This document shows positions 2,523 through 3,740 of a DNA stretch of 64,000 bases, in pieces (position 1 is the stretch's first letter; each line of letters begins with the position of its first letter). Position numbers and translations under genes: made by a program. The stretch is taken from assembly GCF_041886205.1 (NCBI RefSeq), contig NZ_CP169029.1, one strand, 5' to 3'. The notes beneath the pieces were generated by a model, which worked only from the letters and a program-made list of their open reading frames with translations, had not been told where the DNA came from and made no database searches. Source of the DNA: Escherichia coli. Lineage in GTDB: Bacteria > Pseudomonadota > Gammaproteobacteria > Enterobacterales > Enterobacteriaceae.

Positions 2523-3232
2523 TCAGGGCAGATTTTGCTCCTTCTTTGCACTCAACCCGCCGTAATCATTTATCGCCCGCCAGGCGACATGACACGGTGC
2601 TATTGCCTGACACCAGCTTGTCTGACGCTGGCTTTTAGGTGGCACAACTCCCGCATTACTTAACGCTTTACCATTTACGCTCACCTGAATCAGATTAATG
2701 TAGTAAGGCGTTGGGTTAGTGAGTTGCACACCCTGCGAATTCCGTGTCCAGCGTAATTGTTGATAAGCTTCCAGCGGGTCACCCGGCAAACCTTCGGGTC
2801 GCCAGAACAGTTTAAATACCGAGCGCATCGCCACTTTTACGCTCTGATTTTCGACTTTGCCGGATGGCACGCTGGCAATGCTTAACTCAAATAGCGTTTC
2901 GCGATCCACAGGCAAGATGTTGCTTTCCGTTCTCAGTAAGCGCAACGTGCCTGTAGTACCGGGCTTCAGGAGAATAAGTGGCGGAGCGGCCAGTAATGGT
3001 GCTGGCACTGTCGACGCTTCCCCCCGGCCCAACGCGTTGGGCGATTGATTTTACTGTTAATAAGCCAGGATTCCTGACTGGTATTAGTCAGTAAAATAGA
3101 TATCGATTCGCTGTCTGCCGGAAAGATAAATCGCGTTCCGCCGACCACCACTCCTGCCTGCAATTCACCCGCCACCAGCAGCGATAAAACGGCAAAAATC
3201 AAGAGCGCCAATCTGTTCCACGTATTAGTCAT
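2523..3232 (-). pseudogene. ycbF: Fimbrial periplasmic chaperone YcbF, disrupted by a frameshift in this sequence
   Basis: N-terminal chaperone domain (signal peptide, ...SWLINSKINRPTRWAGG) in ORF 2966..3259; C-terminal part (...PPLILLKPGTTGTLRLL...FKLFWRPEGLP) in ORF 2523..3032 in a different frame; junction at C6 run 3020-3025. Confidence 0.6.
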
Positions 3233-3740
3233 AATGAAGTACAAATGTCGCGCTGGCATTCACTTTACCCGACTGCACATCGCTATTAACAGGTCGCAAT
3301 TGCGCATAAAAAGTTAATGGCACCTTACCGCTATGTAGGCTGTAGTCTTTACTCGCCTGGTTAAGCGGAATCAACATCTTCGCATCATCCAGAATCGCAA
3401 TTGCCAGCCCGCTGGCTGCATCCGTACCACTTTCAATGGACAGCATTTCGCTCTGCACTCCGTCGGGGGTTCCTGAAAAGGTGACGTCAACCGTGCTGAC
3501 ATCTGTTCCGCAATCCTGCAAATTAATGATGAAAGATTTCTCCGGGCCATAATTCCCATGAGAAAAACGTGTCAGCGAGACATCGCCTAACTGCACATTG
3601 ATTTGCGTGCTATCCTGTGCTAGCACGCATGTATTACGGCGAAACGATCCGCTAATGTTGACCGTACCATCATGGGCAAATAGCTCACAGCCCCCCGTTA
3701 ATCCCAGTAAGCACAGAATCCAGATTATCCTTTTCAACAT
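3225..3740 (-). CDS. ycbV: Fimbrial-like subunit YcbV
   Basis: ORF 3225..3788; start at ATG 3740 preceded by GAAGGAG; signal peptide; fimbrial subunit-like C-terminus; elf operon synteny. Confidence 0.8.
   Translation of the reverse strand: MLKRIIWILCLLGLTGGCELFAHDGTVNISGSFRRNTCVLAQDSTQINVQLGDVSLTRFSHGNYGPEKSFIINLQDCGTDVSTVDVTFSGTPDGVQSEMLSIESGTDAASGLAIAILDDAKMLIPLNQASKDYSLHSGKVPLTFYAQLRPVNSDVQSGKVNASATFVLHYD

Follow-up and report, generated by a model that had tools for sequence, protein, structure and literature searches.

The window, the 64,000-nt stretch of Escherichia coli DNA analysed here, contains on its minus strand the last part of the elfADCG-ycbUVF chaperone-usher operon, with pyrD and zapC after it. 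The locus was that of K-12, with the same order of genes (elfA-elfD-elfC-elfG-ycbU-ycbV-ycbF-pyrD) and a sequence near-identical to that of K-12 YcbF (b0944). The assignment of ycbF as the last gene of the cryptic elf operon, made earlier from the sequence alone, agreed with this gene order and with the published makeup of the operon, elfADCG-ycbUVF with ycbF last (PMC5797941). In the window, ycbF was split between two minus-strand frames, and the list of open reading frames gave exactly the two that the sequence-only reading had described as meeting at six consecutive C (G on the coding strand). The C-terminal ORF opens with MGRGEASTVPAPLL and overlaps the N-terminal ORF at the six-C run; gene callers report this C-terminal part as a 161-aa fragment starting from a GTG (MPAPLL...). 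The coordinates of the features are collected in Table 1.

Table 1. Coordinates of ycbF, its two open reading frames, its neighbours and the homopolymer tracts in the window.
Feature	Coordinates	Strand	Description
ycbF, PapD-like fimbrial chaperone gene	2523..3259	-	737 nt, frameshifted; last of elfADCG-ycbUVF
ycbF start, PGAP-type	3259	-	ATG
ycbF start, K-12-type	3232	-	ATG (MTNTWNR)
G6 homopolymer (C6 on the plus strand)	3020..3025	-	-1 frameshift site, after codon 71 in K-12 numbering
N-terminal ORF	2966..3259	-	97 aa; native up to ...RWAGG, ending SWLINSKINRPTRWAGG; tail of 17 out-of-frame residues KRRQCQHHYWPLRHLFS, then stop
C-terminal ORF	2523..3032	-	169 aa, mechanical TTG start; MGRGEASTVPAPLLAAPPLILLKPG...FKLFWRPEGLP...
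ycbV	3225..3788	-	upstream neighbour, intact; 3' end overlaps the PGAP-type ycbF start
pyrD	1402..2412	-	downstream neighbour, intact
G7 in elfG	4955..4961	-	the one further 7-nt G/C run of the window; unchanged; internal control

The start of ycbF is placed at three different codons. The K-12 ATG gives an intact protein of 236 aa, the PGAP ATG overlapping ycbV one of 245 aa, and the TTG chosen by Prodigal one of 229 aa. The length of ycbV also varies by annotation (171 aa as annotated, 187 aa as called).

Alignment revealed seven G at the junction of the two frames in MG1655 b0944 and in the close relative LHM10-1, and six in the window. Unlike K-12 YcbF, the window was therefore one G short in the G7 tract and its frame was broken after residue 71. 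The ycbF genes of MG1655 and LHM10-1 translated without interruption, reading ...RWAGGEASTVPAPLL..., and the addition of one G to the window ycbF gave the K-12 YcbF sequence apart from a few substitutions. These results bear out the proposal that one extra C (G on the coding strand) would rejoin the two frames into a 236-aa PapD-like chaperone. As it stands in the assembly, ycbF is a frameshifted pseudogene, with a deletion of 1 nt relative to MG1655, LHM10-1, wlxctx60 and the clone-mates described below. Shuffled sequence predicted 18.7 occurrences of GGGGGG in the window and 8 were counted, and a G6 run by itself is not unusual. Of interest is that the window differs here by one base from every close relative, and not that it has a G6 run.

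Pfam analysis of K-12 YcbF located a PapD_N domain (PF00345) at residues 27-149 (E 7e-26) and a PapD_C domain (PF02753) at residues 172-227 (E 1e-13). In the window these two halves lay in different frames, and they were found in one polypeptide only when one G was restored. The N-terminal product consists of a hydrophobic leader MTNTWNRLALLIFAVLSLLVAGELQA, a putative signal peptide, and under half of PapD_N; the C-terminal ORF holds the remainder of PapD_N and the whole of PapD_C, with no such leader. As the frame is lost within the first domain, once 71 of the 236 residues have been read, neither fragment should be able to work as a periplasmic chaperone, a prediction that follows from the two-domain build known for chaperones of the PapD type. 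The elf operon is cryptic, repressed by H-NS and activated by SlyA, and is functional only under artificial expression (PMC5797941, citing Korea et al. 2010). Since the operon is silenced and elfD, its first chaperone gene, was intact in the window, the loss of ycbF should cost little.

Compared with its near relative wlxctx60 along its full 64,000 bases, the window had 11 substitutions and a single indel, the ycbF G run. None of the 11 substitutions fell in Dam or Dcm motifs, and they therefore offer no hint of the sequencing platform. The window contains 80 homopolymers of at least 6 nt, and the remaining 79 were unchanged relative to wlxctx60, including the G7 of elfG and five G/C6 runs. 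No second homopolymer miscall was therefore found among these 79 runs, although with only one other G/C7 tract this is a weak test. Every other gene annotated in wlxctx60 and lying wholly within the window translated without interruption, in agreement with the earlier statement that the neighbouring genes are intact.

Closer relatives were available as four clone-mates. The draft GCA_036253135.1 had no SNP relative to the window over positions 1-19246, and its sole difference was the presence of G7 in ycbF. The run-level assemblies SRR12852204, SRR8464768 and SRR30822450, from the same sub-lineage, likewise all had G7; zero SNPs relative to the window were found in two of the four clone-mates (GCA_036253135.1 and SRR12852204). 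As all four clone-mates carry G7, the G6 allele is private to this assembly. The tract was also G7 in all six of six near-identical complete genomes. In the protein collection, lineage records comprised 356 blocks with the intact protein versus 6 contigs with the split C-terminal fragment, and five of these six contigs came from runs other than SRR28800585. Neither of the window's N-terminal fragments (97 and 88 aa) had an exact match in the protein collection.

The window encodes Asp at position 325 of LpxK (window position 37834), where wlxctx60 has Ala, and the exact protein was present in one contig of the whole collection, which belongs to SRR28800585. The contigs of this run matched the window at 100%, and it is probably the same isolate. 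The D325 substitution, private and non-synonymous, affects an essential gene and serves as a marker for the source isolate.

The elf/ssu/pepN region (window 1-25000, and especially elfG at 4302-5372) is a rare haplotype. Approximately 6 complete genomes were at least 99.7% identical to it, the next best being 96.5% identical, and it is distinct from that of the other genomes with a frameshifted ycbF in RefSeq. The flanks of the elfG G7 in the window were found in 9 of 5,426 complete genomes, all with G7. In several assemblies of the lineage, including GCA_021916015.1, elfG was called as two pieces, one of 144-152 aa and one of 175 aa; in two of the split-elfG assemblies other than GCA_021916015.1 the frame was broken by the loss of a G from the G7 of elfG, just as in ycbF.

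The length of the ycbF tract was surveyed in 5,426 complete E. coli genomes with queries of 64-66 nt that differed in run length alone. With exact flanks, G6 was found in 85 genomes, G7 in 2,725 and G8 in 14; at least two further G8 alleles with a flank SNP brought the G8 total to at least 16. The frequency of G6 was 2.2% (85 of 3,821 complete genomes), and the G6 genomes were scattered. Both G6 and G8 alleles are labelled "frameshifted" by PGAP. Among them is E. coli C (CP020543), which carries a lesion identical to that of the window and is annotated as a pseudogene. The six-base run is thus not found there as part of an annotated intact gene, and the reconstruction of the frames in the sequence-only reading stands. 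WG5, C122 and NCTC122, which belong to the E. coli C lineage, gave matches of 12,065 nt, one base longer than the 12,064 nt of CP020543, and we read these strains as G7 from the length of the match rather than from inspection of the tract itself. Inheritance of G6 within the E. coli C lineage was considered and found to be unsupported, as CP020543 alone matched at the G6 length; its G6 is either a mutation specific to that stock or an error in that reference.

Other frameshifted alleles differed from the G6 of the window. AH04 and CX12 share the ycbF allele GGGGTG, a deletion together with a G-to-T substitution, which is also annotated as "frameshifted". Since this allele joins a deletion to a substitution and is inherited, it is no plain homopolymer miscall, and the ycbF pseudogene of these strains is a genuinely inherited one. 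CX08, AH02 and CT01 had the same 881-nt match length as the Alberta strains AH04 and CX12 and probably share GGGGTG. G8 recurred in the related strains HE_50, HE_100 and HE_100-10 and was also present in SMN013SH2 and 2014C-3011. Within the lineage of the window, the Logan assembly of a sister isolate, ERR3970214, had G8 (locus 7971-7990) and no other indel over 11 kb, so that G6, G7 and G8 are all on record within one lineage. Four Logan contigs from the lineage had G6 in ycbF, and three of them were also short by one G elsewhere (elfG 4961, ycbV 3696), in keeping with under-calling. SRR19090883, an independent run, had G6 in ycbF and was otherwise error-free over 2.1 kb, which counts against an artefact.

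The rate of assembly error at such tracts was estimated from controls. In the housekeeping gene kup, which has a coding G7 (NC_000913.3 3931555-3931561), a change from G7 to G6 was found in 54 of 5,407 complete genomes (1.0%). The corresponding figure for the coding G7 of the common elfG allele (E. coli C locus 4083-4089) was 27 of 1,886 (1.4%). An elfG control with the flanks of the window itself had been uninformative, as it was represented in the nine G7 genomes noted above, and was redone with the common allele. For the coding G6 of aspC, a change from G6 to G5 was found in 2 of 5,414 genomes (0.04%). This low figure had been taken as a sign that most G6 calls in ycbF were real; it compares a 6-mer with a 7-mer, and the conclusion was overturned by the kup control of equal length.

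The short calls were not independent of one another. Among the assemblies listed, 8 were short at both ycbF and kup, with 0.33 expected (P=7e-10), and 5 at both kup and elfG, with 0.15 expected (P=3e-7). NH-21 and A1.S1.160 were short at all three genes, and both assemblies with G5 in aspC (FORC_082 and ETEC1703) reappeared in the lists for other tracts. Batches in which changes from G7 to G6 co-occurred were CRE78/389/444, C41, APEC20/16 and ETEC17xx. That the same assemblies were short at several tracts indicates a feature of the assemblies, not of the loci or of their biology, and a large share of the public G6 calls is due to homopolymer under-calling. Nevertheless, the rate of G6 in ycbF was 2.3 times that in kup (Fisher p=3e-6), and part of the public ycbF G6 calls is therefore probably real. 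If the rates at kup and elfG are taken to be pure artefact, the real share would be roughly 35-55%.

The sequence-only reading had left two explanations side by side, a homopolymer error and a genuine slipped-strand inactivation. Both remain, and the balance has moved moderately toward error. A one-base change in a homopolymer is both the commonest spontaneous frameshift and the commonest error in long-read assemblies. We consider that the G6 of the window is probably an under-called G7, a homopolymer-length error in this assembly; the isolate would then carry an intact ycbF, as its clone-mates do. The length change was confined to a long homopolymer and was not shared by other, independently assembled members of the clone. 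Like long-read homopolymer errors, it is a -1 change in the longest class of G/C runs and is seen in one assembly alone, and kup and elfG show the same kind of change, co-occurring by assembly; we infer that this instance belongs to that assembly-clustered type. It is unlike such errors in that no second one was found in 64 kb. The lack of any other indel indicates that the assembly is not grossly error-prone, which counts against an artefact, and the lack of other homopolymer discrepancies is a modest argument for a real mutation. It is no more than modest, given that the window offers a single further G7 tract and that error-prone batches such as ETEC17xx are often short at one tract and not at another. 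The absence of G6 from the four clone-mates favours an artefact more strongly than the clean 64 kb favours a mutation, since a real event would need a very short terminal branch. A genuine and very recent slipped-strand deletion from G7 to G6, creating a ycbF pseudogene in this isolate, is a substantial possibility that falls short of being probable. In its favour, the indel is the sole one in 64 kb, the elfG tract of equal length is intact, and G6 calls are more frequent at ycbF than at kup or elfG. Heritable frameshifts of ycbF are known from the GGGGTG allele of AH04 and CX12, G8 is recurrent, including in ERR3970214, and selection on an H-NS-repressed cryptic operon is weak (PMC5797941). 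Moreover, the private SNP at 37834 was confirmed by an independent read-derived contig, which demonstrates that private differences of this assembly can be real. Against this, G7 is present in every clone-mate free of SNPs over as much as 19.2 kb, which leaves only a very short terminal branch for the deletion, and the artefact rate at the control tracts accounts for about half, if not more, of the G6 calls in public genomes. The weight given to an under-call relative to a real deletion is our own inference and was not computed.

Anything regulatory at the ycbF tract is very improbable. One such reading is that the G7 is an evolved phase-variation switch, acting at a low rate on the second ELF/Ycb chaperone and changing which elf/ycb subunits are assembled; the G6 of the window and the G8 of the sister isolate ERR3970214 would then both be off states. 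The run GGG GGG G is retained across diverged alleles (the 2,725 genomes with exact flanks), although GGG is not among the glycine codons favoured by E. coli, and -1 and +1 alleles were both found. Genes for fimbrial biogenesis often carry switches of this kind in other bacteria. In these respects (an early G tract, a gene for a surface structure and variants in both directions) ycbF resembles the poly-G and poly-C contingency loci of Neisseria, Haemophilus, Campylobacter and Bordetella. It differs from them in the shortness of its tract, seven bases being few for such a locus in a species proficient in mismatch repair, and in an excess over controls of at most about two-fold: variability was just ~1.6-2.3 times that of control tracts of equal length, much of it assembly artefact. 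The off alleles appear as scattered singletons and not as switching clades, and a search of the literature on ycbF yielded no mention of the frameshift or of any phase variation. We regard a switch as very unlikely. Still further down is the proposal that G6 is real and that some full-length YcbF is made by -1 ribosomal frameshifting or transcriptional slippage, which we judge to be barely credible. A -1 slip on GGG GGG would indeed give back the native frame, but the run is short, no canonical X XXY YYZ heptamer is present in the zero frame and no downstream stimulatory structure was identified. Transcriptional slippage is known for longer runs, mostly of A or T. With the intact gene the overwhelming norm, nothing points to an encoded event.

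The finding is nothing new in kind: the window holds an ordinary orthologue of K-12 ycbF, and the G6 allele is already annotated as a pseudogene in RefSeq. Its biological weight is small, as it concerns the second chaperone of an H-NS-silenced operon, and dozens of RefSeq genomes already have a ycbF annotated as frameshifted. The survey does call for caution in another respect. About 1-2% of "complete" E. coli genomes show a change from G7 to G6 at any given G7 tract, even that of the housekeeping gene kup. Such calls cluster by assembly and become frameshifted pseudogenes in PGAP annotation, in what looks like a systematic source of false annotation. Surveys of pseudogenes in fimbrial operons, and claims of phase variation drawn from public assemblies, therefore need confirmation at the level of the reads.
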